A stretch of DNA of 34,449 nt from Bdellovibrionota bacterium (GTDB lineage Bacteria; Bdellovibrionota_C; UBA2361), in the NCBI GenBank assembly GCA_044352465.1, contig JBILDU010000025.1, forward strand, positions 1 to 34,449, given 5' to 3'. The notes under the pieces were generated by a model, which saw nothing but the letters and a program-made list of their open reading frames with translations, had not been told where the DNA came from and searched no databases. Position numbers and translations under genes: made by a program. Position 1 is the stretch's first letter; every line of letters starts with the position of its first letter. Shown piece by piece: positions 5,616-17,572 of this stretch.

Positions 5616-6161
5616 CTACCCCTTCTTCTCGAGGTTGCTCCGGTGGCCTTCAAGTACTTGCGCCATCTGCTGGGCCGGGGCCTTCATCAGACGTACAAGC
5701 TGGGTAGCAGGTGCTGCAAGCAACCCAAGCAGTTTGCCCAGTGTCTCCTCTCTGCTCGGCATCTTCGAGAGAGTCTCCACCCCTGCTTGGTCAACGAACG
5801 CTCCGTCGAGCCAACCACCCTTTATCTTGAACTTGTCATTTTTCTTCGCAAAGTCGGACAGGACCTTCGCGGGCGATACCGGGTCCTGATCCGAAAACAC
5901 TACGAAGCTCGGCCCCTTGAGTAGGCTCACGAACTTCTCCAGCTGCGCTTTATCCGCATTCGGGAAAGATCCATTCGCTGACAAGCGAGCGAGCGTGTTC
6001 TTAACCACAACCCCTTGCGCACCCTTGCTCCGCAAGTCGCGGCGAAGCTTCGTGATAGCCGCAACAGAGAGACCCCGGTAGTCGCCACAAAGCGTTACCT
6101 GGGTTGTCGCGAACATTTTATTTAAAAGCTCTACTTCTACCTGCTTTTCAGCCCGTTCCAT
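5616..6161 (-). CDS. rplJ: 50S ribosomal protein L10
   Basis: DYRGLSV..LRRDLR, VVKNTLA, LSKMPSREETLGKL; synteny. Confidence 0.97.
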   Translation of the reverse strand: MERAEKQVEVELLNKMFATTQVTLCGDYRGLSVAAITKLRRDLRSKGAQGVVVKNTLARLSANGSFPNADKAQLEKFVSLLKGPSFVVFSDQDPVSPAKVLSDFAKKNDKFKIKGGWLDGAFVDQAGVETLSKMPSREETLGKLLGLLAAPATQLVRLMKAPAQQMAQVLEGHRSNLEKKG

Positions 6162-6204
6162 CGCTCAAAACTCCCAATCTGAAATTCAAATATCCGCTGA
6201 CAGA

Positions 6205-6900
6205 CTATGCCCGAAGCGGTGCCACATCGACGTTGACCCCTGGCCCCATCGTGCACGCAATCGTCGCACGCTTGAGGTACACACCCTTACTCGTCGACGG
6301 CTTCGCTTTATTTACCGCAGCAAGGAGCGCTTGGATGTTCTCAGCGATCTTCTTACCGCCGAACGAAGCCTTCCCTACCGGAGCCTGGAGAATACCAGCC
6401 TTCTCCACGCGAAACTCAGCCCGCCCAGCCTTGATCGACTTTACCGTTGCGCCGATATCAGCGGTTACGGTACCGACCTTCGGCGAGGGCATGAGGCCAC
6501 GGGGTCCCAAGATCTTACCGACCTTACCCACCTGAGCCATCATGTCGGGGCTAGCGACCACACTGTCAAAGTCGGTAAAGCCGCCTTTAATCTTCTCGAC
6601 TAAGTCTTCAGCTCCGACAAACTCAGCGCCAGCCGCCTCGGCATCCTTGGCCTTCTCGCCCTTAGCGAAAACAACCACGCGCACGTTTTTGCCGAGACCG
6701 TGAGGAAGCGCGACGCTCCCCCGCACACTCTGCTCAGCTTTTCGGGCATCAACACCGAGGTTGAGCGCTATCTCGACCGTCTCGTCAAACTTCGCCGACG
6801 CGGTAGAGACAACAAGATCACACGCCGACTGAAGATCATAAACCTTCAGTGCGTCTACCTTCTCCCGCTGCGCCTTAATTCTCTTTCCTGCATTCGCCAT
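6205..6900 (-). CDS. rplA: 50S ribosomal protein L1
   Basis: [33 protein letters not shown]; start taken at MANAGKR. Confidence 0.98.
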
Positions 6901-6934
6901 ACAAACCGTCCTCAATGAAACTAGAGATCCTTAT

Positions 6935-7360
6935 TTAGTCAACCACGTCGACGCCCATACTCCGGGCGGTGCCCGCCACAGTACGGAAAGCTGCCTCGTC
7001 GGAGTTAACATTGAGGTCGACCATCTTTGTCTTGGCGATCTCAGCGACTTGGGCCTTGGTTATCTTGCCAACCTTCTGCTTGTTGGGGACGCCCGAGCCA
7101 CTCTCAATTTTGCACGCCTTCTTAATGAGGTACGAAACCGGAGGGGTCTTGAGTTCAAAAGTGAAGGAGCGATCTTTGTAAACCGTGAGAACCACCGGAG
7201 TGATCTCACCAGCTTGCTTTTGGGTCTTCGCATTAAACTGCTTACAAAACTCCATGATGTTGACGCCGTGTTGACCGAGCACGGGTCCGATCGGCGGAGC
7301 GGGGTTCGCCTGGCCGGCCGGAATCTGAAGTTTAATTTGCGCTGTAATTTCCTTTGCCAT
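6935..7360 (-). CDS. rplK: 50S ribosomal protein L11
   Basis: [42 protein letters not shown]. Confidence 0.99.
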
Positions 7361-7449
7361 GATTCACTCTACTGCTGCTCAAATCTTTTGTTGTCACTCG
7401 AAGTCCCCGCGCGCCCTTTCTTAGCCACGCGAGCACCCCTTTCAAACTC

Positions 7450-8043
7450 TTAACACTTCTCCACTTGAATGAAGTCGAGCTCCACCGGAGTCGCTCGCCC
7501 AAAGATGCTGATGAGCACCTTAACCTTCCCTTTCTCAGGCTTAACCTCTTCAACGGTGCCGTTAAATTCCGCGAAAGGCCCATCGATAACCTTGACGGCC
7601 TCCCCCTGCTCAAAGGTCGCCCGGGAGCGCGGCGACGCGGTACCCTCTTCAACTTGATTACGGATCCGCGCCACCTCGTCCTCCGAAAGAGGCTCGGGGC
7701 TCGTCGCATCACCAAGGAATCCCGAAATTTTCGGGGTGTCCTTCACCAAGTGCCACGTGTCCTGGTTCAGCTCCATCTGAACGAGCACGTACCCGGGGAA
7801 GAATTTCCGGTTCGACGTCTTCTTCTGACCCCGAACGAGCTCCACCACGGTTTCCTGAGGCACGTGGATGTCGCCAAACATGTCCGTAAAGTTGTACTGA
7901 CGAATGCGCTCTTCAAGCACCTGCTTCGCCTTCATCTCGAAGCCGGAGTGCGCCTGAACGACGTACCACTTCATCTTTGAAGTGTCCTTACTGAGCGGTG
8001 CTTCCGCCTTCACGCCTTCAGATGTCATATCCTCAGTTGCCAT
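7450..8043 (-). CDS. nusG: transcription termination/antitermination factor NusG
   Basis: [23 protein letters not shown] motif [26 protein letters not shown]. Confidence 0.99.
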
Positions 8044-8089
8044 AGGAATTGGCCCTTACGAGACCACAAATCCAAAAATTCGCTCGCAT

Positions 8090-8305
8090 CTACACGATCG
8101 CCTGCATCAACTTCCCGAAAATCACATCGAGAATGAACAGACAGAGAGACACGAAAACGACGATCACAAGGGTCACCAGCGTTGCCTGAACCGTCTGCTG
8201 CCGCGTCGGGTGGCTGATCTTTTTCAGCTCAGCGATGCTCTCAGAGACGTAACTACGTCCCTTCGCTACGACCGATCCGGTTGACTCAGCGTGTTCAGCA
8301 CTCAT
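8090..8305 (-). CDS. secE: preprotein translocase subunit SecE
   Basis: ELKKISHPTRQQT followed by one TM helix ending LFILD; immediately upstream of nusG; start uncertain (8305 or 8323). Confidence 0.92.
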   Translation of the reverse strand: MSAEHAESTGSVVAKGRSYVSESIAELKKISHPTRQQTVQATLVTLVIVVFVSLCLFILDVIFGKLMQAIV

Positions 8306-8476
8306 AGCGCCCGACTTCGACACAAATAAACCGCCGCCACTCCTAAACTTTGCTCCAAAGAGCAAGATTCCCCGCCCGCACCAAGGTGAAAGTTCTCTCA
8401 CTTGGACACGCTTGCAAACTTCAAAAACGACCTAAGTTCTTGAAAACGTAAGCAATGGCAGAAAATTAGAGCTGGA

Positions 8477-8505
8477 ACACTAGCAAATAACGTTCGCTAG
8501 AGCAA
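8477..8505 (-). promoter_or_regulatory. sigma70-type promoter for secE-nusG
   Basis: TTGCTC - 17 nt - TAGTGT with extended TGn. Confidence 0.5.
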
Positions 8506-8858
8506 ACGGTGGGGGCAAGTTTTTTTGAGATAACTCAACCTAGCAGGTTTATCAAAAGTTACCTCGATAAACTTTGCACAGGCGGCTCGCCGTCACCTCA
8601 GGCAGCAAACCGAAGCGCAACTCATCGAAACAACAAGGCGCCTCTGCTGAGGCTCGCTCGCGTCGGGCCTTACGGAACGCGAAAAAGCCGCGCCGACTGT
8701 CTTTTAGGGGCCTTTCCGTTCGACTCTCCGAGGCTTAGCCAGCATGACCTGGCACCTCCCGACGAGACAACGCGAGTCGACACCGCAGAGAGTTCAAAAA
8801 GAGCCGCACGACATGAAATAAGAATTTTTGGGCCACATGAACATCACCGCACTCACCT

Positions 8859-9043
8859 TCCCGCCTCCGGCGGGAACTGGGTTCGCTTCCCTCCGGGAGG
8901 TGACTCGCAACTTTGAGGGTAATTGGCACGCCCGGAGGGAATCGCCGCGCTAGCCTCTCCCGCCTCCGGCGGGAACTGGGTTCGCTTCCCTCCGGGAGGT
9001 GACTCGCAACTTTGAGGGTAATTGGCACGCCCGGAGGGAATCG
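8859..9043 (-). repeat. two identical 86-bp direct repeats (99-bp period) overlapping the tRNA-Trp 3' end
   Basis: 8859-8944 = 8958-9043; each includes the last 21 nt of tRNA-Trp plus 65 nt of trailer. Confidence 0.95.
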
Positions 9044-9098
9044 AACCCCCAACCAACGGATTTGGAATCCGCTACTCTACCAATTGAGCTACGGGCGT
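9023..9098 (-). tRNA. tRNA-Trp(CCA)
   Basis: Cloverleaf; anticodon arm GCGGA-TTCCAAA-TCCGT; GTTCGA T-loop; encoded CCA. Confidence 0.97.
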
Positions 9099-9113
9099 AG
9101 CTTTGAGAAGAAG

Positions 9114-9189
<76 letters not shown>

Positions 9190-9211
9190 GTATACTCACG
9201 ACCGAGTGGGC

Positions 9212-9240
9212 ATTATGTAGAGAAGCAGATCAATTGTAAA
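9212..9240 (-). promoter_or_regulatory. sigma70-type promoter for tRNA-Thr/tRNA-Trp
   Basis: TTTACA - 17 nt - CATAAT, about 22 nt before tRNA-Thr(GGT). Confidence 0.7.
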
Positions 9241-9261
9241 TATTCCGAACGCGCTTGACGC

Positions 9262-9290
9262 TTTACATCCCCAAAAAAAGAAATCATTCT
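9262..9290 (+). promoter_or_regulatory. sigma70-type promoter for tRNA-Thr/Gly/Tyr
   Basis: TTTACA - 17 nt - CATTCT, back-to-back with the minus-strand promoter. Confidence 0.55.
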
Positions 9291-9321
9291 GGGATGGGGT
9301 GGGTCTAAATCCGCGCGATAC

Positions 9322-9394
9322 GCTGGCATAGCTCAACTGGTAGAGCAGCTGATTTGTAATCAGCAGGTTATGGGTTCAAGTCCCGTTGCCAGCT
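9322..9394 (+). tRNA. tRNA-Thr(TGT)
   Basis: Anticodon arm GCTGA-TTTGTAA-TCAGC; GTTCAA T-loop; CCA not encoded. Confidence 0.96.
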
Positions 9395-9430
9395 TTGATT
9401 TTAACTGATACTCCTTACCGCTCCTCGATT

Positions 9431-9678
9431 CTCGAATCGCTAGCGCGATTCGAGGGGTGCATCAGCCTCGTCAAGCTTGCAGCTTGAACGGCTGATGGAC
9501 CGAAGAGGTAACTCTTGAGTTCACCGGATGCGGGAGTAGCTCAGTTGGCCCCTTTTATGCTCGAATCGCTGGCGCAATTCGAGGGGTGCATCAGCCTCGT
9601 CAAGCTTGCAGCTTGAACGGCTGATGGACCGAAGAGGTAACTCTGAAGTTCACCGGATGCGGGAGTAGCTCAGTTGGC
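9431..9678 (+). repeat. two 119-bp direct repeats (129-bp period) overlapping the tRNA-Gly 5' end
   Basis: 9431-9549 vs 9560-9678, 4 mismatches; each ends with the first 20 nt of tRNA-Gly. Confidence 0.95.
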
Positions 9679-9735
9679 TAGAGCATCAGCCTTCCAAGCT
9701 GAGGGTCGCGAGTTCGAGTCTCGTCTCCCGCTCCA
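9659..9735 (+). tRNA. tRNA-Gly(TCC)
   Basis: Anticodon arm TCAGC-CTTCCAA-GCTGA; encoded CCA. Confidence 0.97.
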
Positions 9736-9847
9736 TTTTCTCCCTCGATATTTGGATTTGAGGGCGGTTTTGGAGTAGCATCCGAAGCGTTCAAAGATCC
9801 TCGCGCTAGCCACGCGAGGGAAGCGCACATTCTTACGGTATTCTTGC

Positions 9848-9930
9848 GGTGAGGTGCCCGAGTGGCTAAAGGGGGCAGACTGTAAATCTGCTGGCTTACG
9901 CCTACGGGGGTTCGAATCCCTCCCTCACCA
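9848..9930 (+). tRNA. tRNA-Tyr(GTA)
   Basis: Anticodon arm GCAGA-CTGTAAA-TCTGC, long variable arm, acceptor stem GGTGAGG/CCTCACC; CCA not encoded. Confidence 0.96.
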
Positions 9931-10026
9931 ATTCTTTCCTTTCGCTTCTCTACTCTATTTATTTTTTTCTCTCTCTCTTTTTCTCTCTCTTTGCACCCTC
10001 CTGTTTCTTTTTTCATTTTTTCTCTC
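9931..10026 (+). repeat. low-complexity polypyrimidine tract
   Basis: About 95 nt of mostly T/C, with (CT)n and T runs. Confidence 0.8.
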
Positions 10027-10327
10027 GTATCAATCGTATCCGTCCCTCAATACCCAGCTGTTCCGCTGCAGCTGGAAATGAAGATTGGCGAAATCTCGCA
10101 ACCTACAATTTTTGCCTGCGTTTTATGTTAACTTGATGAGCGTGATCCGAGCGGCGAAGTACTAGCTTTTTTCTCTTCGGCTCCGAGCTCCGTTCGACTT
10201 ACTTAGGCGAACGCTCGACTCGACTGATGTCCGAAAGAGCCTCTCTTTCGGGAATATCCATACGGTCTTGCCCAAGGCGCTTAGCTGACACACGGCCGCC
10301 CCCTCTCGTCCTGACCGGATCGGCAAA

Positions 10328-11869
10328 TCAAGACGCGGCGTGCCGCTCCTGGCGAGCCGCCGCGCGTCGGCGGGGGGTTGCTCGTGAGCCGGGTCCAGGA
10401 GCTTTTGCCGCATCTCGGATCTCGTGGGGGAGATAATCGACCTGCCCGACCCGGGCAAAATCGACGTAAAACGATTGCGCCACCTCGCTCGCCCGAAATT
10501 CTCGCGTTGTCGTGAGATGTCGCCACAGCTCGAGGGTGAGATTTTGCAACGCGATGCCGTGACGACGGCCCACCCGGGAAAATAGCTCATCGCTGAACGC
10601 CATAAACGCGGCAAACGGGGAGCTACCACCTCGCCAGAGGAGCCGAACCGTCTCAGTAAAACGCCCGCTATTGGCGATGAGGTCCCAATACTTGGCGAAT
10701 CGGCGCATCCGCTGCAGCTCCTCAAACGAGATGTGCGCGGTCGAAAGCACCTCGTACGGCGCGTGCGCAGCGTAGACCATCTGGAAAGCCTCATCATGCC
10801 GGCTGATCGGTGTGCCGCGCAGCCGCTTCAGTATCCCGACCTGAATCTCGTGTGGCTCGAGTGCGACGAGGCGATCGAACCCCGCAGCGAAACTCGCTAC
10901 GTTTTCTCCAGGCAGTCCCACGATGAGATCCGCGTGGATATACACCCCGGTTTCCTTCCTGAGAAACGTCAGGTTCTCTTCGATCTTCGCGTAATCCTGC
11001 CGTCGACTGATGTGACCACTCACTTCGGGGTTGAAGGTCTGAATACCGACCTCAAACTGGAGCGCCCCCGGCGGGAAACGCTTAATCGAATCGCGGAGCG
11101 CCGCCGGGAGTCTATCGGGCACCATCTCGAAATGGACGAAAAGCTCCGGGGTATATCGCTCCCAAAAGAAGTCGAGGATCGCTTTCGCGGTCCGGATATT
11201 GAGATTAAAGGTCCGGTCGACGAACTTAAAGGTGCGCGCTCCACGTCGATACAACCCGTCCATATGGGCCAAAAACGGTTCGAGCGGGAAGGCCCGGACG
11301 GGAATATCTAAGGACGATAAGCAGAACTCGCACGTAAAGGGACATCCCCGCGAAGCCTCAACGTAAATGATTCGTTTCGCGACATCATCGGCGGCATAGA
11401 GATCGTACGGCAGCGCCACCTCCTCGAGCTTCGGCACCGGACTACGAATTACTCTTTCGCTCGGCGGATGACCGGAGAGGATCGCGGCGCAGAGAGTTGG
11501 CAGGGTGAGGTCTGCTTCGCCCGTCACAACGAAGTCCGCGAGGTGCGTAATGCGCTGCGCTTCGATCTCGAAGCTAACTTCGGGCCCACCCAGGACGATG
11601 ACGGTGTCAGGTAAAATTCGCTTCAGGAGGAGCACCAGTTCCTCCGTCTCGGTAACGTTCCAGATATAAACACCGAGCCCGATAATCCGCGGGGAGAGCT
11701 GTCGCAGTTCATCCGCGATATCGAGGACATCTTGGTTGGTATTAAATTCACGAACGACCGCACGCGACTGGAGCTCACCCAGGTTAGCGTAGAGATAGCG
11801 TAACCCAAATGCAGCGTGGATGTACTTGGCGTTCAACGTAGCGAGTACGATGTCGGTCGACACGGGCAC
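10328..11869 (-). CDS. B12-binding radical SAM protein (DUF4080-type)
   Basis: LNAKYIH, GVYIWN, VLGGPEVS, EASRGCPFTCEFCLSS (CxxxCxxC), KFVDRTFN, HADLIVGLPGE. Confidence 0.92.
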   Translation of the reverse strand: MPVSTDIVLATLNAKYIHAAFGLRYLYANLGELQSRAVVREFNTNQDVLDIADELRQLSPRIIGLGVYIWNVTETEELVLLLKRILPDTVIVLGGPEVSFEIEAQRITHLADFVVTGEADLTLPTLCAAILSGHPPSERVIRSPVPKLEEVALPYDLYAADDVAKRIIYVEASRGCPFTCEFCLSSLDIPVRAFPLEPFLAHMDGLYRRGARTFKFVDRTFNLNIRTAKAILDFFWERYTPELFVHFEMVPDRLPAALRDSIKRFPPGALQFEVGIQTFNPEVSGHISRRQDYAKIEENLTFLRKETGVYIHADLIVGLPGENVASFAAGFDRLVALEPHEIQVGILKRLRGTPISRHDEAFQMVYAAHAPYEVLSTAHISFEELQRMRRFAKYWDLIANSGRFTETVRLLWRGGSSPFAAFMAFSDELFSRVGRRHGIALQNLTLELWRHLTTTREFRASEVAQSFYVDFARVGQVDYLPHEIRDAAKAPGPGSRATPRRRAAARQERHAAS

Positions 11870-12063
11870 GTGGCACCTTATCCGGTTTTAATTGGTAACC
11901 GAGCAGCCAAAGATTTAGCCTCCGACCCCGCTCTCACGTGAAAAAACTTTCCGGACGGAGTTCAAGTGTAGGATAAGAGGGTCCTGATAACAACTCTTTG
12001 GACCCGTTGCGGGAAACTCCTCACACCACCGGTCTATCGCCCAGACTTTTCCCCTTTCCCCCG

Positions 12064-12100
12064 TGTACCGGGGCTACTTCCCCCTGTACCGGGGCTACTT
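12064..12100. repeat. 16-bp direct repeat x2, 21-bp period
   Basis: TGTACCGGGGCTACTT at 12064-12079 and 12085-12100. Confidence 0.85.
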
Positions 12101-12170
12101 TTTGAGGGCTTCTCAATGAGCGATATAGACCGGATCACGGATCCCCAGGCTTAGCGAAGCGGACGGTCGG

Positions 12171-13019
12171 TCACCTTACCGGCTCAAAGTCGAGATATCG
12201 GCTCTCCCCCGATGGGCCACTGGATACAAGTCCATAGAGTCGTAAATTACCCGAGTGATCCTGGGAGACTTCGGTTGAAATTTCACACCAGCCGACCTTG
12301 AATCGAAGTCTCTCCCGGCCACTCGGGGGCCCCTTCTGCGAGGATTCCGGAACGAGGACGAAGTCACTGAAATCGTTTTTCAATTGAGACCTCTCACGGT
12401 ACCGGCCAAGTTCCCGTATGGAGCCGACAGCGATCCAATCGGCAGCATCCCAACATCGAACCTCGTCGAACTTACCCGGAAGAGGTACCACACGGATCGC
12501 CGGCGCACGGTTTCGTAGTTCAACAGATGCTGGGCACTCCACCCACCACGAGAAAGATGAGTGAACGCGCAAAAGTCATAGTTTTGCCAGATACGATCGG
12601 CAAGGGCGCGGTTGTTACCCCACAGCAGTCTCACGGCCAGCTGAAGAGGGACAAGGAGCCCAACACCCGAGTGCTCGCCGGGATCTCACGGTGCCTTAGC
12701 TTCACACTCCCTGTATGCGCTGGGACCTCTATCGTCGATGCGGCTTCCTCTGCTGACTCCGTCTCGAGCTTCTCCAGGGGGTACAGCGAGGGTGAGGATT
12801 CGGAAGAGAGCGCTTCCGATTAATTCATAGTACTGAGCCTCACCCATAGGTAGTGAGTTACCGATTTACGGCGCACTATACATGGATTGTGGGACGTTTT
12901 TAGGGAGAATCACCCGCCAAAGAACGCTCCCGGAGAGGAGTTTTTCGAAATCGATGTCGAGGATGTCTTCTATGTCATCAACGACACTGCTCAGCCACGA
13001 GCCGTTCGATATCTTTCAT
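12171..13019 (-). pseudogene. probable fragmented gene of unknown function
   Basis: AAGGAGG then ATG at 13019; protein-like segments join across frameshifts and an in-frame TAA, ending in the 12171-12572 ORF. Confidence 0.3.
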
Positions 13020-13393
13020 ACTCTGTATGACGCCTCCTTTCAAAAACGATGGGGCGGTTCTGGGGGCTACAAATAGCAGGCGCTACCTGGGGGTGGTGGG
13101 ACGGGTACGACGTACCCTACATCTCCCCCCGACGATTCCTTCGCGGCGCAGGTCTCGGTATCGCCCACTCCGCGTTCCGGCAAACACCTTTCGCCACCCC
13201 ATTATGAGGCGGGCTCCCGATCGGTGATTTTCGTAGCGGGAATACTCACCGATGGGAATAGTTTTTCTCACTCCGCGCGTATTTTTCACACCGATCCAGT
13301 TCCCAACCGGTATTTATCCTCGTTTTTCAGATACCTTTCCTTGGAACGCCCCTTGCTTGTCTTCGCAGAGATCGGGCAATTGAGGTTACGATT

Positions 13394-16180
13394 TTGAGGC
13401 ATTTCACAGCGATTTTGATTTTTTTCCTCGTGCACTGGGGCACGACAAGCACCGCCGCGATAGCCGCTCCTCAGACCCACATCGAGATTTGGAACGAGTC
13501 TCCTCCGGACCTTCGGTTCGGCTGTCTCGCGCGCCCCAACTCGAATCGTCGTGACGTCGTCGCCCTGAGCCGGGGGGGAGCGATCCGCGCCGTTCTGTCG
13601 AACTCCTATGAGCGTCGTGCAGCCCTTCGTTCGCTCCTGCGGAAGCGGTTGAGTCTCATCAAACAAAACGCGCGACGCCAAGACATTCGCGCGATTGACG
13701 CACTGATTAGGCGATTTAAACGGGGGTGCGCCAGCATCACCCCGCCGCCTCTCCCAACATCCACGGTCGCACCTCCGCCACTCGTGACTCCGCTACCAAC
13801 TGCTCAACCCACGAGCGCCCCATCGCCCACACCAACGAGCGAGCCGGTACAAACACCGCTGCCCCTCAGTACCTCGACACCACCACCAATGAATACTGCA
13901 ACCCCCACACCAACACGATCACCGACGCCCACGCTCACGCCTTCGCCGACAACAACGCCGACCCCGACGCGGACCCCAACCCGAACACCAACCGTACTCC
14001 CAACACCGTCCGGAACTCCCAGCACAGCGACACCCGACGCCCAACTTACCGGAAACTGCGTTGCTATTATGAACGTGGATTCGTTCGGCTCCGCTACCGT
14101 GCCGATTCAGCTCGGCCGGGGCTTCATACCGGGCGAGATAGCCAACTACCCCACAGCGCTCCTTGGTGGCGCGATCGTCCCAACACAGGCCCACGTCCAA
14201 AGCCGTTGGAGCGACGGAACAGTCAAGCACGCTATCCTCGTCTTCTATCTCGCGCTCCAGCCCCAAGAAACGAAGGTAGTATGCTTCGGCGACCAGAATA
14301 CCAACTACAACGCCGGAGGACTCGGCGCGGCTGACATCCTTAACTCCGCCTGGAACTTCGACGCTACCGTGCGCATCACCGAAGCAGGCTCCGAATCGCT
14401 GGCCTCCGCCCGGCAAGCTCTTGCAGCCGGCCGTTATGAGACGTGGTTTAGCGGGCTCGGCGCAACCTCTCTGATTATCGGGGACCGCCTCAGCGCAACT
14501 CTGGATCTCGGCTCAAACCCGCGAACGGTGCGGCCGATGTTCTACGCCACGTTTTTCCCATTCGCCAACGCGGTGCGGATTCGCTTCTCAGCCGAGACAA
14601 CGAACAGCGAAGCGTTGGGAGACAAAACGTACGGGGTGAACCTGCAAGTTGGGGCCGTCAACCCCACCACAGTCTACGCGCGCTCTCCATTCACCCACCA
14701 TGCTCAAACCGTCTGGTCCCGCGAATTTTGGCTCGGTCAACGTCCACCGCGGATAACGATAAAACACAATCTAGCCTATCTGGCCGCGACGCACCTCCTG
14801 CCGAACTACGACCCGTCGATTCAAGTAGCGGCAACTGCGGTCAATTCGGAGTGCTCACGGTGGCTCAATGCGCCGCGTGAGATCGGCCAACGCGGACTCT
14901 TCGTGTCGGATATGGGCTCGTCGGGAGGTCGCGGTGAGCTCGGACTCCTTCCCCGCTGGGTCGTCATGTACCTCTACACTGGAAATGCGTGCCTCCAAGA
15001 CTCATTTTTCGGTCATGCCGACCTCGCCGGCGCATGGCCGATGTTTCTCCGCGAAGGGCGCGCGGGAACGTCGTTCAACCGCGCACTCACCGTGCCGGGC
15101 CAAGGCCGTTTTCTCTCTTTCTACTCACGCCCAAGTTTTTGGATAAATGGACAAACCTTCAGCGGTACCCCGAACGATCGGATTACCCCGGTTACCCCAC
15201 TTGCGCCCAACCCGTTCAGGGTGGATTGGGCTCACATGCCCGATCTGTTCTCGACCCAATACCTCCTGTCCGGCGATCGACATTACCTTGAGATGCTGCA
15301 GGGCCAAGCACTCTCCGCTCTTCTCGGTCGACAACCGGGGAATTCGTGGCTCACCCGCGGGCCGTACGGATGTTTCGACCTGGGAACCACCGGGCAGACT
15401 CGCGCTGACGCTTGGCTCATTCGCACGCTCGCCTCAGCGCTCGCCTACTCTCCTGATGGCACGCCGGAGACGAACGAATTACGCTATCGGGCCGAATGCC
15501 TCGTGGCAGCATGGCACGGAGCTCACAACCTCACGAATCCACTTCCGAGTCACGAAGGCTCGTGGCAGTGGGCCCGCACAAGCGTTCGCACCGGCACCGG
15601 GGGAACCGATTGCGGCATGTACGGGTCGTACCCCTATCCCACCTGCACTTTTCCCTTCGCTCCGCCGGTCAACAGCACCGTTCCATTTTGGGCTGAACCG
15701 GCACCGACGATCGTGGCCGGTCAGGTCAACTCCCCTGCCGTTGTCATGCCGTGGCAATATAACTATCTCATCGCGGCGCTCACTCGAGCACAGGAACTGG
15801 GATTACCGACGAACTCATTGCTCGATTGGGTCGGAAGATTTACGACCGATCTCCTTCTTGCTCCCGGATACAATCGCTGGCTCGCCGCGGAATATTATTT
15901 TCCAGCCCGAGATCCCCTCACCGGCCGCTACCTTGCGTCGGTCAACGCAGCGTTACCGCTCTACACGCCCGCACGACTCAGCGAGGCCCAGAGTGGCTTT
16001 ATCGCAGGTCTCTCCGGGGTTGAGCACAGCTATTCGATTATTCTTCGGATGGCGCTCGAGATGATGGCCGACTCAGGCGATGCTCCCGCGGCGCGACAGG
16101 TCTACGCTGAAATGATAGGCACGCATGCGATACCGTTTGAGCTAAATCCGCAGTGGGGTGTGATCAAGCGAATACCGTAA
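13394..16180 (+). CDS. large secreted protein with Pro/Thr linker and uncharacterised catalytic-like C-terminal region
   Basis: 928-aa ORF; signal-peptide-like N-terminus, about 90-aa PT linker, RWSDGTVKHA motif, aromatic-rich helical C-terminus; TTG start uncertain. Confidence 0.85.
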   Translation: MRHFTAILIFFLVHWGTTSTAAIAAPQTHIEIWNESPPDLRFGCLARPNSNRRDVVALSRGGAIRAVLSNSYERRAALRSLLRKRLSLIKQNARRQDIRAIDALIRRFKRGCASITPPPLPTSTVAPPPLVTPLPTAQPTSAPSPTPTSEPVQTPLPLSTSTPPPMNTATPTPTRSPTPTLTPSPTTTPTPTRTPTRTPTVLPTPSGTPSTATPDAQLTGNCVAIMNVDSFGSATVPIQLGRGFIPGEIANYPTALLGGAIVPTQAHVQSRWSDGTVKHAILVFYLALQPQETKVVCFGDQNTNYNAGGLGAADILNSAWNFDATVRITEAGSESLASARQALAAGRYETWFSGLGATSLIIGDRLSATLDLGSNPRTVRPMFYATFFPFANAVRIRFSAETTNSEALGDKTYGVNLQVGAVNPTTVYARSPFTHHAQTVWSREFWLGQRPPRITIKHNLAYLAATHLLPNYDPSIQVAATAVNSECSRWLNAPREIGQRGLFVSDMGSSGGRGELGLLPRWVVMYLYTGNACLQDSFFGHADLAGAWPMFLREGRAGTSFNRALTVPGQGRFLSFYSRPSFWINGQTFSGTPNDRITPVTPLAPNPFRVDWAHMPDLFSTQYLLSGDRHYLEMLQGQALSALLGRQPGNSWLTRGPYGCFDLGTTGQTRADAWLIRTLASALAYSPDGTPETNELRYRAECLVAAWHGAHNLTNPLPSHEGSWQWARTSVRTGTGGTDCGMYGSYPYPTCTFPFAPPVNSTVPFWAEPAPTIVAGQVNSPAVVMPWQYNYLIAALTRAQELGLPTNSLLDWVGRFTTDLLLAPGYNRWLAAEYYFPARDPLTGRYLASVNAALPLYTPARLSEAQSGFIAGLSGVEHSYSIILRMALEMMADSGDAPAARQVYAEMIGTHAIPFELNPQWGVIKRIP

Positions 16181-16306
16181 CACCCCAGAGCTCTTCGGTG
16201 GGAGGGCACCAGAGGCGACTACCCGGCTCGACGCTCAGCAGCGTCCCCAATCCCAAGCGTCAGTTGAGCTTCGTTATTGGAGGAGTTGGAGTGTAGGCAC
16301 CTTGCT

Positions 16307-17572
16307 TTAGATCTGCGCTTTATTGAGCCGAAAACACCGCAACTCATACGCCGCACGTTCAACCAACTCACCCTGGTGCTGTAGCGCGGGCAGGACACCG
16401 AACGGTTTAAGTTTCTCAAGGGTTGCGCGTCTAGAATTAAGCCGCTGGGTGAGAAGCTCTTCGACCGTTTGCTTGAACTCTGCCCGACCAGTGGGTGTAG
16501 ACTTTTCGTAATCACGGGGGTCCACATGTTCGAAGAGAACCAGCTCCGCTACCCGACGCTGTACCCCAACATCATGGGTCATTCGCTCCTCGCGCGCGCG
16601 CTCGATAGTTTCCTTCGTCGAAGGCAACCGCCCCGCATAGGGGTCGGTTTTACTCTGTAGATCCGCCCGGTGTGCCCGCTCGAGGACATCGAGCGCACCC
16701 TCAACATGCACCACCAAAGCTCCGAGTTCGATAACGGCGCTTTTCATCTCAGTCGATAGCGAATTCGGGTCGACCAGTGTACCGAAGAGCCCTGCGATGC
16801 GGAGCTCCGGCGGTACCTTTTCGGCGAGCTCCTGCGCAAATCGGGAATCGCCCCGCTGAGCGATCCTGCGGCTCAACTGAAGGATCTCGGGTACTCGGTC
16901 GAGCGGTGACTCAAGGACTCCGAATACGTCCTCGACAAAGTCATCCGATCTTTTAAAGCCCTCACATTCGGCGACTTGGTGGGCGAACTGACGCACCGAA
17001 ATCGGGGTCGAATTGCGCGCCTCCACAAGTGGAGTATCGAGGAGATCGGTCACACTCAGGCTAAGACGCTTAAGGGGCGCATCGCTCGGGAGGCTCACCC
17101 CCTCCAAAATACCCAACTGCTCGATCATCTTGGCGCACAAGGGTGCGACATCGAGCCTGATCTGCTTTGTCTCCGAAACTACGTGTCCCTTTGATGGGTC
17201 CCGCTCCACCCGCTCCTTGCGCGCCTCGGCGATCCCCTGAAAGGGTGTACACGGATCGAAAATATTTTGGTCTTCGTGGATACCTTGCAGGGTGAATCCG
17301 AGGTGGAAAATAGCTCTGCCTATCTGGTCAGCCAAACGACCGAGATTGAGCACTAACTCGGGCGAAAGCTTGGCGCGCACCGACGCCGGTGTGAGGTCCA
17401 GTGTGCTGGCAAATCGTTGCACAAGATGGTCCGTAAGATCGACACCAGCTTGCTCGAGCCGCCACGAGGCAGCGATATCGGCTGGGAGCACTCCGGCATT
17501 CCTCAGCGAGATGTATTCGTCGTAACGGGGTCTCTGCGGGGTAGGCTCAGGACTTGGCTTCGGATCAACCAT
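16307..17572 (-). CDS. hypothetical protein (helical, charged)
   Basis: 421-aa ORF with GGAGG upstream of ATG; no recognised motif. Confidence 0.75.
   Translation of the reverse strand: MVDPKPSPEPTPQRPRYDEYISLRNAGVLPADIAASWRLEQAGVDLTDHLVQRFASTLDLTPASVRAKLSPELVLNLGRLADQIGRAIFHLGFTLQGIHEDQNIFDPCTPFQGIAEARKERVERDPSKGHVVSETKQIRLDVAPLCAKMIEQLGILEGVSLPSDAPLKRLSLSVTDLLDTPLVEARNSTPISVRQFAHQVAECEGFKRSDDFVEDVFGVLESPLDRVPEILQLSRRIAQRGDSRFAQELAEKVPPELRIAGLFGTLVDPNSLSTEMKSAVIELGALVVHVEGALDVLERAHRADLQSKTDPYAGRLPSTKETIERAREERMTHDVGVQRRVAELVLFEHVDPRDYEKSTPTGRAEFKQTVEELLTQRLNSRRATLEKLKPFGVLPALQHQGELVERAAYELRCFRLNKAQI

Follow-up and report, generated by a model that had tools for sequence, protein, structure and literature searches.

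A tandemly duplicated, probably tRNA-derived leader upstream of tRNA-Gly(UCC) in a Bdellovibrionota bacterium

Why should the leader of a transfer RNA (tRNA) gene carry a copy of the 5' end of that same tRNA? The question is raised by contig JBILDU010000025.1 of a Bdellovibrionota bacterium (assembly GCA_044352465.1), of which positions 1 to 34,449 were analyzed and are referred to here as the window. The leader in question is the 264-nucleotide (nt) spacer from tRNA-Thr(UGU) to tRNA-Gly(UCC), and it holds a tandem repeat whose first unit closes with the opening 20 nt of tRNA-Gly. An earlier interpretation made from the DNA letters alone (the sequence-only reading) had taken the repeat for a tRNA-Gly 5' half with hairpins inserted in its loops. 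Our analysis indicates that the leader consists of two tandem copies of a genus-specific folded spacer, which probably descends from an old tRNA-Gly relic and would be a constrained part of the tRNA precursor that RNase P removes.

The architecture of the repeat was determined by alignment. A 122-nt direct repeat is present on the forward strand at 9428-9549 and 9557-9678, with a period of 129 nt, 96% identity and 5 differences. Each unit begins with a hairpin, H1, whose 10-base-pair stem is CTCGAATCGC/GCGATTCGAG, followed by a long arm, GGTGCATCAGCC...GGCTGATGGACC, around TCAAGCT-TGC-AGCTTGA, then by a hairpin with a GTAA loop of the GNRA type, and finally by TTCACCGGAT, which stands immediately 5' of the tRNA or of its partial copy. 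In copy 1, H1 lies at 9431-9454; an arm that we trace below to a tRNA relic (9456-9477) is joined through a loop to its inverted arm (9481-9501), and the GNRA hairpin (9503-9516), TTCACCGGAT and the 20-nt tRNA copy complete the unit. In copy 2, the corresponding positions are 9560-9583 for H1, 9585-9606 for the relic arm, 9610-9630 for the inverted arm and 9633-9644 for the GNRA hairpin, after which the repeat continues into nt 1-20 of the real tRNA-Gly. All 10 H1 pairs form in copy 1, and 9 of them in copy 2. The partial tRNA copy, hereafter the stump, occupies 9530-9549 and comprises the acceptor 5' strand and the D-arm up to the D-loop; it is identical to tRNA-Gly at 20/20 positions, as had been claimed. 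The 109 nt between the stump and the real tRNA-Gly repeat the leader of this same gene. The junction and a variable linker, CCCTTTTATG, at 9550-9559 form the fastest-changing part of the unit in the alignments. Ahead of the repeat, a leader 5' segment at 9402-9424, AACTGATACTCC ... CGCTCC, is complementary to GGAU together with the first 17 nt of either the stump or the real tRNA and is a candidate clamp. All elements named in the sequence-only reading were located where it had placed them, including the hairpins TCAAGCT-TGC-AGCTTGA, GGTGCATCAGCC/GGCTGATGGACC and AGAG-GTAA-CTCT.

Metagenomic contigs were used to examine the junction. Contigs of runs X1 and X2 (9520-9606) and of run X10 (9520-9589) span the stump, the junction and copy 2 with 0 differences; these are DNA contigs from lake-water or freshwater runs of different studies, and the duplication is therefore not an assembly artefact. 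A T>G polymorphism was recorded at 9553 in run X2. No joint skipping one unit was listed in four runs, as seen in contigs, which drop rare variants.

The age of the duplication was assessed with G001, the single same-genus relative of the source genome (G000) among the compared species genomes. In G001, gene order is unchanged, and a single 134-nt leader carries the same four hairpins and a relic of tRNA-Gly nt 24-41 and lacks the 20-nt stump. Since G001 carries a single copy without the stump, the duplication in G000 took place after the species split and is recent and species-specific. One of its ends falls within the D-loop, at tRNA nt 20, and the other within the linker that precedes H1 (CCCTTTTATG, corresponding to TCTCTGATG in G001). 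The presence of the relic in a leader without the stump further means that the two differ in age and that the stump is a by-product of the duplication. Hence, the earlier claim of a real, aged duplication with four differences stands as to its reality, whereas the differences number five and the event is recent; likewise, the reading of the unit as one tRNA-like copy is not supported in that form, as its two tRNA-like parts are of different age.

The relic forms the core of the leader. The 10-mer GCATCAGCCT occurs at 9459-9468 and 9588-9597 as well as in tRNA-Gly itself at 9683-9692 (tRNA nt 25-34). The match of the second site to the tRNA had been pointed out before and is confirmed; a sense tRNA 10-mer of this kind arose in 25/5000 dinucleotide shuffles of the stump-free G001 leader. 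When long insertions are allowed, the leader sequence GCATCAGCCT-CG-T-CAAGCT matches tRNA nt 24-41 (GCATCAGCCTTCCAAGCT), and gapped alignments to tRNA from nt 24-41 on were as good in 10/1000 shuffles for G001, 39/1000 for copy 1 and 17/1000 for copy 2. The next sequence in the leader, AGCTTGA-AC-GGCTGATGG, is an inverted copy of the relic, and its antisense score was reached by 1-2/1000 shuffles. TCAAGCT, the 5' arm of the inner hairpin, extends the tRNA match (against tRNA TCCAAGCT) and the 3' arm is part of the inverted copy, indicating that the hairpin is tRNA sequence folded back and not a foreign insert. The proposal that a hairpin had replaced the anticodon loop is thus not upheld. The core accordingly comprises tRNA-Gly nt 24-41 and its inverted copy, with two further hairpins flanking it. 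In a broader sense, the idea of a tRNA 5' half with inserted hairpins is borne out: the parts of the unit are collinear with those of tRNA-Gly (first nt 1-20, then a hairpin in place of nt 21-23, then nt 24-41), gapped alignments of stump-free leaders to the tRNA beat all but 10-39 of 1000 shuffles, and the same one-piece design is found in the relatives G039 and G014.

The conservation of the leader was then compared with that of its surroundings. Copy 1 is identical to the G001 leader at 114/134 positions (85%), with no indels and 1 unaligned base, and copy 2 at 95/109 (87%). This exceeds the neutral rate as far as one sister species can give it, since only 52% of 423 four-fold degenerate sites of rplJ, rplA, rplK, nusG and secE are identical between the two genomes. 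Coding DNA of the region is 83% identical overall, and, counting gaps, the spacer between both tRNA-Thr genes is 53% and the spacer 3' of tRNA-Gly 43% identical. The excess over four-fold sites and other spacers implies that the leader is either constrained or was exchanged later. The differences between G000 and G001 fall in the H1 loop, the linker, the inner-hairpin loop and the GTAA hairpin's outer part, where one pair is altered on both sides; the flanking tRNA genes are identical. The leader of tRNA-Val(UAC) is similarly conserved, about 90% outside the tRNA; the Gly and Val leaders together range from 85 to 93%.

Folding of the leader, which the sequence-only reading had proposed as a check, gave a free energy of -117.4 kcal/mol over 264 nt, against -87.0 for shuffles (z -6.0; 0/200 shuffles as good). 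The G001 leader gave z -5.1. The same reading had paired AACTGATACTCC (9403-9414) with the tRNA 5' sequence. This pairing is possible; alone, it does not rise above chance, since 79/1000 shuffles were as good against tRNA nt 1-25 and 711/1000 against the whole tRNA. Together with CGCTCC (9419-9424), which pairs with GGAU plus GCG, it reaches -22.4 kcal/mol, a value attained by 20-28/2000 shuffles, and the partner of the complete 5' segment is then the leader end plus tRNA nt 1-17. The corresponding duplex in G001 has -20.6 kcal/mol (matched by 84/2000 shuffles), two base changes having removed one of the 12 AACTGATACTCC pairs and turned another into G-U. In the fold of the leader alone, both minimum-energy and centroid, the 5' segment pairs with the stump; in the minimum-energy fold of G001, the clamp pairing displaces the acceptor and D stems.

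Taken together, these observations suggest a history in two stages. Through an older event, the leader would have acquired a partial copy of tRNA-Gly, of which nt 24-41 and the inverted copy survive as the core. The layout of this core is as would be expected from snap-back template switching at the anticodon hairpin, and palindromic relics in three lineages have different centres, which fits such an origin. After the split from G001, a 129-bp tandem duplication copied the leader once more and, since it ended in the linker and in the tRNA D-loop, created the 20-nt stump. As a mutation, this duplication is of an ordinary type; what is unusual is its substrate, a leader that is conserved, tRNA-derived and confined to the genus. 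As to function, tRNA-Thr, the spacer, tRNA-Gly and tRNA-Tyr would be made as one precursor transcript, in which the spacer would fold alone into four hairpins per unit. RNase P would cut at 9658/9659, with U at position -1, and would presumably leave the stump uncut because the acceptor 3' strand and T-arm are absent from it. The leader 5' segment may clamp tRNA nt 1-17, and the G000 stump would be an identical partner for the clamp that is transcribed before the real tRNA. Selection may keep the spacer through its aid to ordered folding and processing of the precursor; an alternative constraint would be the harm from broken helices, whose released tRNA-like strands would cause the real tRNA to misfold.

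Several points weigh against this interpretation. Transcription, the RNase P cut and the role of the spacer are read from sequence, and the template-switch origin is deduced from the palindromic layout. Compensatory change affects 1/33 pairs, 3 are broken in one sequence each, and the rest are invariant between the two species; a C-A mismatch occurs in H1 once in copy 2 and once in G001. The pairing of the 12-mer AACTGATACTCC is by itself no better than chance, and the full clamp is only modestly above it (p about 0.01 in G000 and 0.04 in G001). The new G000 stump has no antisense partner on its 3' side, as 299/300 shuffles pair equally well. The high identity of the leader could also reflect later exchange over a short recombination tract, for which the identical tRNAs on either side would be the anchors. 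Finally, of the partial copies at tRNA-Trp described below, the 5' stump occurs in G001 only and the 3' repeat in G000 only, among the two species compared, and such fast gain and loss implies that many of these modules are dispensable.

The recombination tract is central to the suggestion that the units are neutral debris, decaying duplication products without a role whose apparent conservation was acquired through the identical tRNA-Thr and tRNA-Gly. Modules turn over fast between the sister species and between families, H1 bears mismatches in copy 2 and in G001, and the flanking tRNAs could anchor recombination, all of which would agree with it. Against it, identity is 85-93% in both the Gly and the Val leader, which are independent of each other, the neighbouring spacers, likewise flanked by tRNAs, reach 43-53%, and the 134 nt are free of indels with substitutions that avoid helices; we consider neutral debris quite unlikely. 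The same conservation, far above four-fold sites, could also be expected of a trans-acting or regulatory tRNA mimic, that is, a unit released as a stable small RNA that binds a tRNA-Gly factor or sponges RNA, with copy number tuning its activity. The fold is autonomous and very stable, tRNA processing on both sides would give defined ends, and tRNA operon spacers of E. coli act as RNA sponges. The unit, however, lacks the T-arm, the acceptor 3' strand and an anticodon loop; it scores nothing on the tRNA model (Rfam RF00005, E up to 10, within 9395-9658), ARAGORN finds no tRNA there, and the notion that the unit is itself a tRNA is thereby dismissed. Considering that it is present in just 2 of 91 genomes of the order and that no target or partner could be identified, a mimic appears unlikely.

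Since integrating elements are the classic source of partial tRNA copies, PMC9897764 describing att-type repeats that flank 9-23 kb of foreign DNA with an integrase, the leader might instead be a scar, namely att-type duplications after integration and loss of an island, phage or hairpin element targeting tRNA-Gly. Hairpin-interrupted tRNA-Arg copies beside a GIY-YIG-like open reading frame (ORF) in Chitinophagaceae, described below, speak for such elements. At the present locus, however, the duplicated tRNA end is the 5' one (nt 1-20) and the 3' part is not repeated. A kb-scale insert is absent, just 109 nt of the gene's own leader separating the copies. Integrase, recombinase or nuclease families were absent from the 9 ORFs scanned (5616-17572; 5 of them without a Pfam family), and the phage and plasmid collections gave no match to the unit. 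The hairpin words form no repeat family: the 231-nt unit pair matches nothing but itself in the 3.13-Mb genome, and a 17-nt and a 12-nt hairpin word are confined to both units. A mobile-element scar is thus very improbable, and the earlier remark that the arrangement is unlike ordinary att sites proves sound.

The distribution of the unit was examined by homology searches. BLAST of 9395-9740 against 60 relatives matched the leader solely in G001. A covariance model of the G000/G001 unit (R1), following the Infernal search that had been suggested, recovered only its three training sequences, from 2 genomes, among 91 genomes of the order; it thus yielded the homologue in G001 and nothing else, and its next best match (E 0.02) spans one hairpin. 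No Rfam family other than tRNA matched 8800-10300 meaningfully. A scan for the pattern in metagenomes gave 0 matches, and one in genome contigs gave 15 loci, of which 1 is G039 (L042) and 6 are Chitinophagaceae and relatives with tRNA-Arg copies; the others are ordinary tRNAs, chance matches and tRNA-tRNA fusions. Two candidate identities were tried and rejected. One was a REP- or MITE-like element (repetitive extragenic palindrome or miniature inverted-repeat transposable element); the enriched 10-mers, of which CTCGAATCGC occurs 40 times in the genome, stand in unrelated contexts that by appearance, not by gene calls, are mostly coding, and the unit is unique. A small peptide was likewise rejected, as there are merely frames of 20-33 amino acids with TTG starts, one of them starting within tRNA-Thr. 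MAFFT aligns the tRNA-derived parts of the G039 unit with those of G000 in a similar layout, yet the two units are treated as independent because R1 misses G039 and the other 4 genomes of its family are without the unit.

The tRNA cluster of the window adjoins secE-nusG-rplKAJ-rpoB, in a genome of 57% G+C with 44 tRNA genes. tRNA-Thr(UGU), the 5' neighbour of the leader (9322-9394, + strand; 72.4 bits on the Rfam tRNA model), and the intact tRNA-Gly(UCC), with CCA encoded (9659-9735, + strand; 71.1 bits), were both found by ARAGORN; tRNA-Tyr(GUA) (9848-9930, + strand) would be the last gene of a presumed Thr-Gly-Tyr transcription unit. No promoter-like or terminator-like site was found on the + strand of 9395-9847, and a type A RNase P RNA is encoded in the genome (226.7 bits). 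On the - strand lie tRNA-Trp (9023-9098) and tRNA-Thr(GGU) (9114-9189). The two groups, tRNA-Thr(GGU)/Trp and tRNA-Thr(UGU)/Gly/Tyr, diverge from a shared 132-nt spacer, which has a - strand promoter-like site, TTTACA-17-CATAAT, kept in G001. The ORFs near the repeat encode SecE, NusG, RplK, RplA, RplJ, RpoB, a B12/radical SAM protein and others without a family match. tufB is often found in the tRNA/secE-nusG cluster; it is absent from that of G000 (window 9114-9394).

Partial self-copies are not restricted to tRNA-Gly. Five of the 44 tRNA genes in G000 have one at most 3 kb away (blastn-short, E up to 0.05), tRNA-Gly(UCC) with its nt 1-20 stump in the duplicated leader being one case. tRNA-Val(UAC) (contig C80, 7611-7863; L069) is preceded by its nt 1-46 and then by a double-hairpin insert of about 134 nt. 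A module about 90% identical is present on the - strand at tRNA-Val(UAC) of G001 (C146; L075, 560-1480), where it is placed inside the stump at two points, behind nt 26 and behind nt 46; a partial third copy of the double-hairpin module was seen farther upstream. Downstream of tRNA-Trp, a perfect 86-nt repeat with a period of 99 (8859-8944 and 8958-9043, - strand) contains in each copy the final 21 nt of that tRNA, CCA included, with an antisense piece of the T-arm (GGAGGGAAGCGAACC) and also a GC hairpin ahead of them. In G001, a tRNA-Trp 5' stump of nt 1-46 with an insert of about 150 nt holding antisense nt 32-51 (L003, 980-1150, - strand) lies between tRNA-Thr(GGU) and tRNA-Trp, two genes that are 15 nt apart in G000. 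On contig C127 of G000 (L070), tRNA-Ser(GGA) (8560-8940, - strand) is followed by three 77-nt units and tRNA-Ser(CGA) (10140-10458, + strand) by at least two 78-nt units; the spacers of these units are nearly identical, and each ends in the 3' end of its own tRNA with CCA. The tRNA-Ser array extends to the contig end, with a further piece at the start of C16.

Similar stumps were found across the order. A tRNA-Gly(UCC) 5' stump, starting at nt 1-5, is upstream of the gene in 6 of 49 genomes, these being the genomes, G000 included, with tRNA-Gly(UCC) in the locus; one further locus is cut at a contig end. With G008, whose locus is on a second contig and was counted separately, there are 7. The stump comprises nt 1-20 in G000; nt 1-21, a hairpin, nt 23-34 and an inverted copy in G039; nt 5-19, two hairpins and antisense nt 11-21 in G050; and nt 1-47, twice, in G008. 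G016 has three units of nt 1-36, a hairpin, antisense nt 27-38 and a GNRA hairpin. In G014, nt 1-13, a hairpin, nt 13-22, a hairpin, nt 23-47, an insert and antisense nt 46-66 follow one another, and in G013, nt 1-51, an insert of about 85 nt and nt 59-74, the insert recurring in a 3' copy downstream. Every stump matches the tRNA variant of its own genome, and the shuffle expectation for own-tRNA matches of at least 9 nt is 0.0-0.4 per locus. The breakpoints, at nt 13, 19-21, 36, 47 and 51 for tRNA-Gly(UCC), lie mostly in or beside tRNA loops, namely the D-loop, anticodon loop and variable loop. Of 10 stump copies scored, 5 have an end whose pairing with the insert behind it surpasses that of at least 97% of shuffles; the count of such antisense caps by genome, 4/7, leaves aside three rows (both Val loci and G014) with a misplaced stump end. 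The cap fails for the new G000 stump and for G039, and the pattern is therefore frequent only. Since R1 finds no further unit in the 91 genomes, the modules are not one family by descent and are repeated products of a similar process. The G000 leader is thus one case of a wider habit of the lineage, in which half-tRNA copies with hairpin inserts lie beside tRNA genes, often with an antisense copy of the stump end, and this pattern is recurrent and, as far as the searches show, undescribed. A bolder proposal holds that these half-tRNA cassettes of stump, hairpins and antisense piece are undescribed, selected cis-regulators of tRNA maturation present in several bacterial phyla, in which the leader clamps the nascent 5' half, a stump decoy releases it, the copy number of the cassette sets the mature tRNA yield, and the loop-biased breakpoints reflect a specific generating process at tRNA genes; this we regard as doubtful.

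Related arrangements were observed elsewhere. In G043 (L004, 1579-2040), a module of about 240 nt is present about twice downstream of tRNA-Gly(UCC), with three 49-nt hairpin repeats, antisense tRNA nt 54-73 and the sense 3' end CGTCTCCCGCTCCA; the antisense and sense pieces could form an acceptor-stem-like helix ending in UCCA. The second copy ends differently, without the closing sense 3'-end piece. In Chitinophagaceae and related Bacteroidota (L033, L035, L036, L038, L045 and L047), a 20-nt palindrome, CCTGCCTGCCGGCAGGCAGG, splits the D-loop of tRNA-Arg(UCU) copies and, in some of them, the anticodon loop as well. A putative GIY-YIG nuclease ORF, as read from its translation, adjoins the copies in 5 of the 6 loci (not in L045), and an intact tRNA-Arg is near them in 5 of 6, none being found in L036. 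An Alistipes scaffold (L039) carries a tRNA-Gly in which nt 1-47 are followed by nt 14-77, an internal tandem duplication, and a tRNA-Thr 5' part is fused to a tRNA-Gly 3' part in a metagenome-assembled genome of Saprospiraceae (L046); these two rearrangements may be real or may be assembly errors.

Among known systems, the RtT repeats of E. coli tyrT-tyrV (rttR, RF00391) have the closest layout. They are tandem, co-transcribed and each contain an exact copy of a tRNA end; they are located downstream of the tRNA and copy its 3' end. G000 shares with them tandem repeats in a presumed tRNA operon with a short exact tRNA-end copy, in the form of two 129-nt units with a 20-nt tRNA 5' copy closing unit 1, whereas here the repeat lies upstream of the tRNA, the copied end is the 5' one and the core is a palindromised anticodon arm; cmscan of 8800-10300 (E up to 10) gave no match to RF00391. 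The tRNA-Trp and tRNA-Ser 3'-side repeats of G000 are nearer to RtT in layout. Spacer-derived RNAs are also known in E. coli, such as 3'ETS-leuZ (from a 3' external transcribed spacer) and those of the metZWV spacers. Like these, the leader would be a structured part of a tRNA precursor whose ends are fixed by tRNA processing, and it could act alone. As for att copies, attL/attR repeats as a rule copy the tRNA 3' part. They have in common with G000 a direct repeat of part of a tRNA beside the intact gene; in G000, by contrast, the 5' part is copied at a spacing of 129 nt, with the gene's own leader between and no integrase found nearby. Full-text literature searches found no description of 5' tRNA stumps in tandem leader repeats. 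[quoted passage not shown]

The flanks of tRNA genes are usually seen as featureless leaders discarded by RNase P, and partial tRNA copies as scars of integration. Here, a partial copy appears to have arisen without a mobile element, within a spacer that is itself probably an old tRNA relic, and this spacer is conserved about as a functional RNA would be between species with nearly saturated silent sites. Together with the other stump modules of the genome and the order, it suggests that tRNA genes recurrently spawn structured, constrained leader and trailer RNAs. If these modules affect tRNA folding or processing, they would represent a new layer of control over tRNA supply; if they have no such effect, they would provide a clean natural archive of template-switch mutagenesis at structured genes, as well as a warning to island finders that rely on tRNAs.

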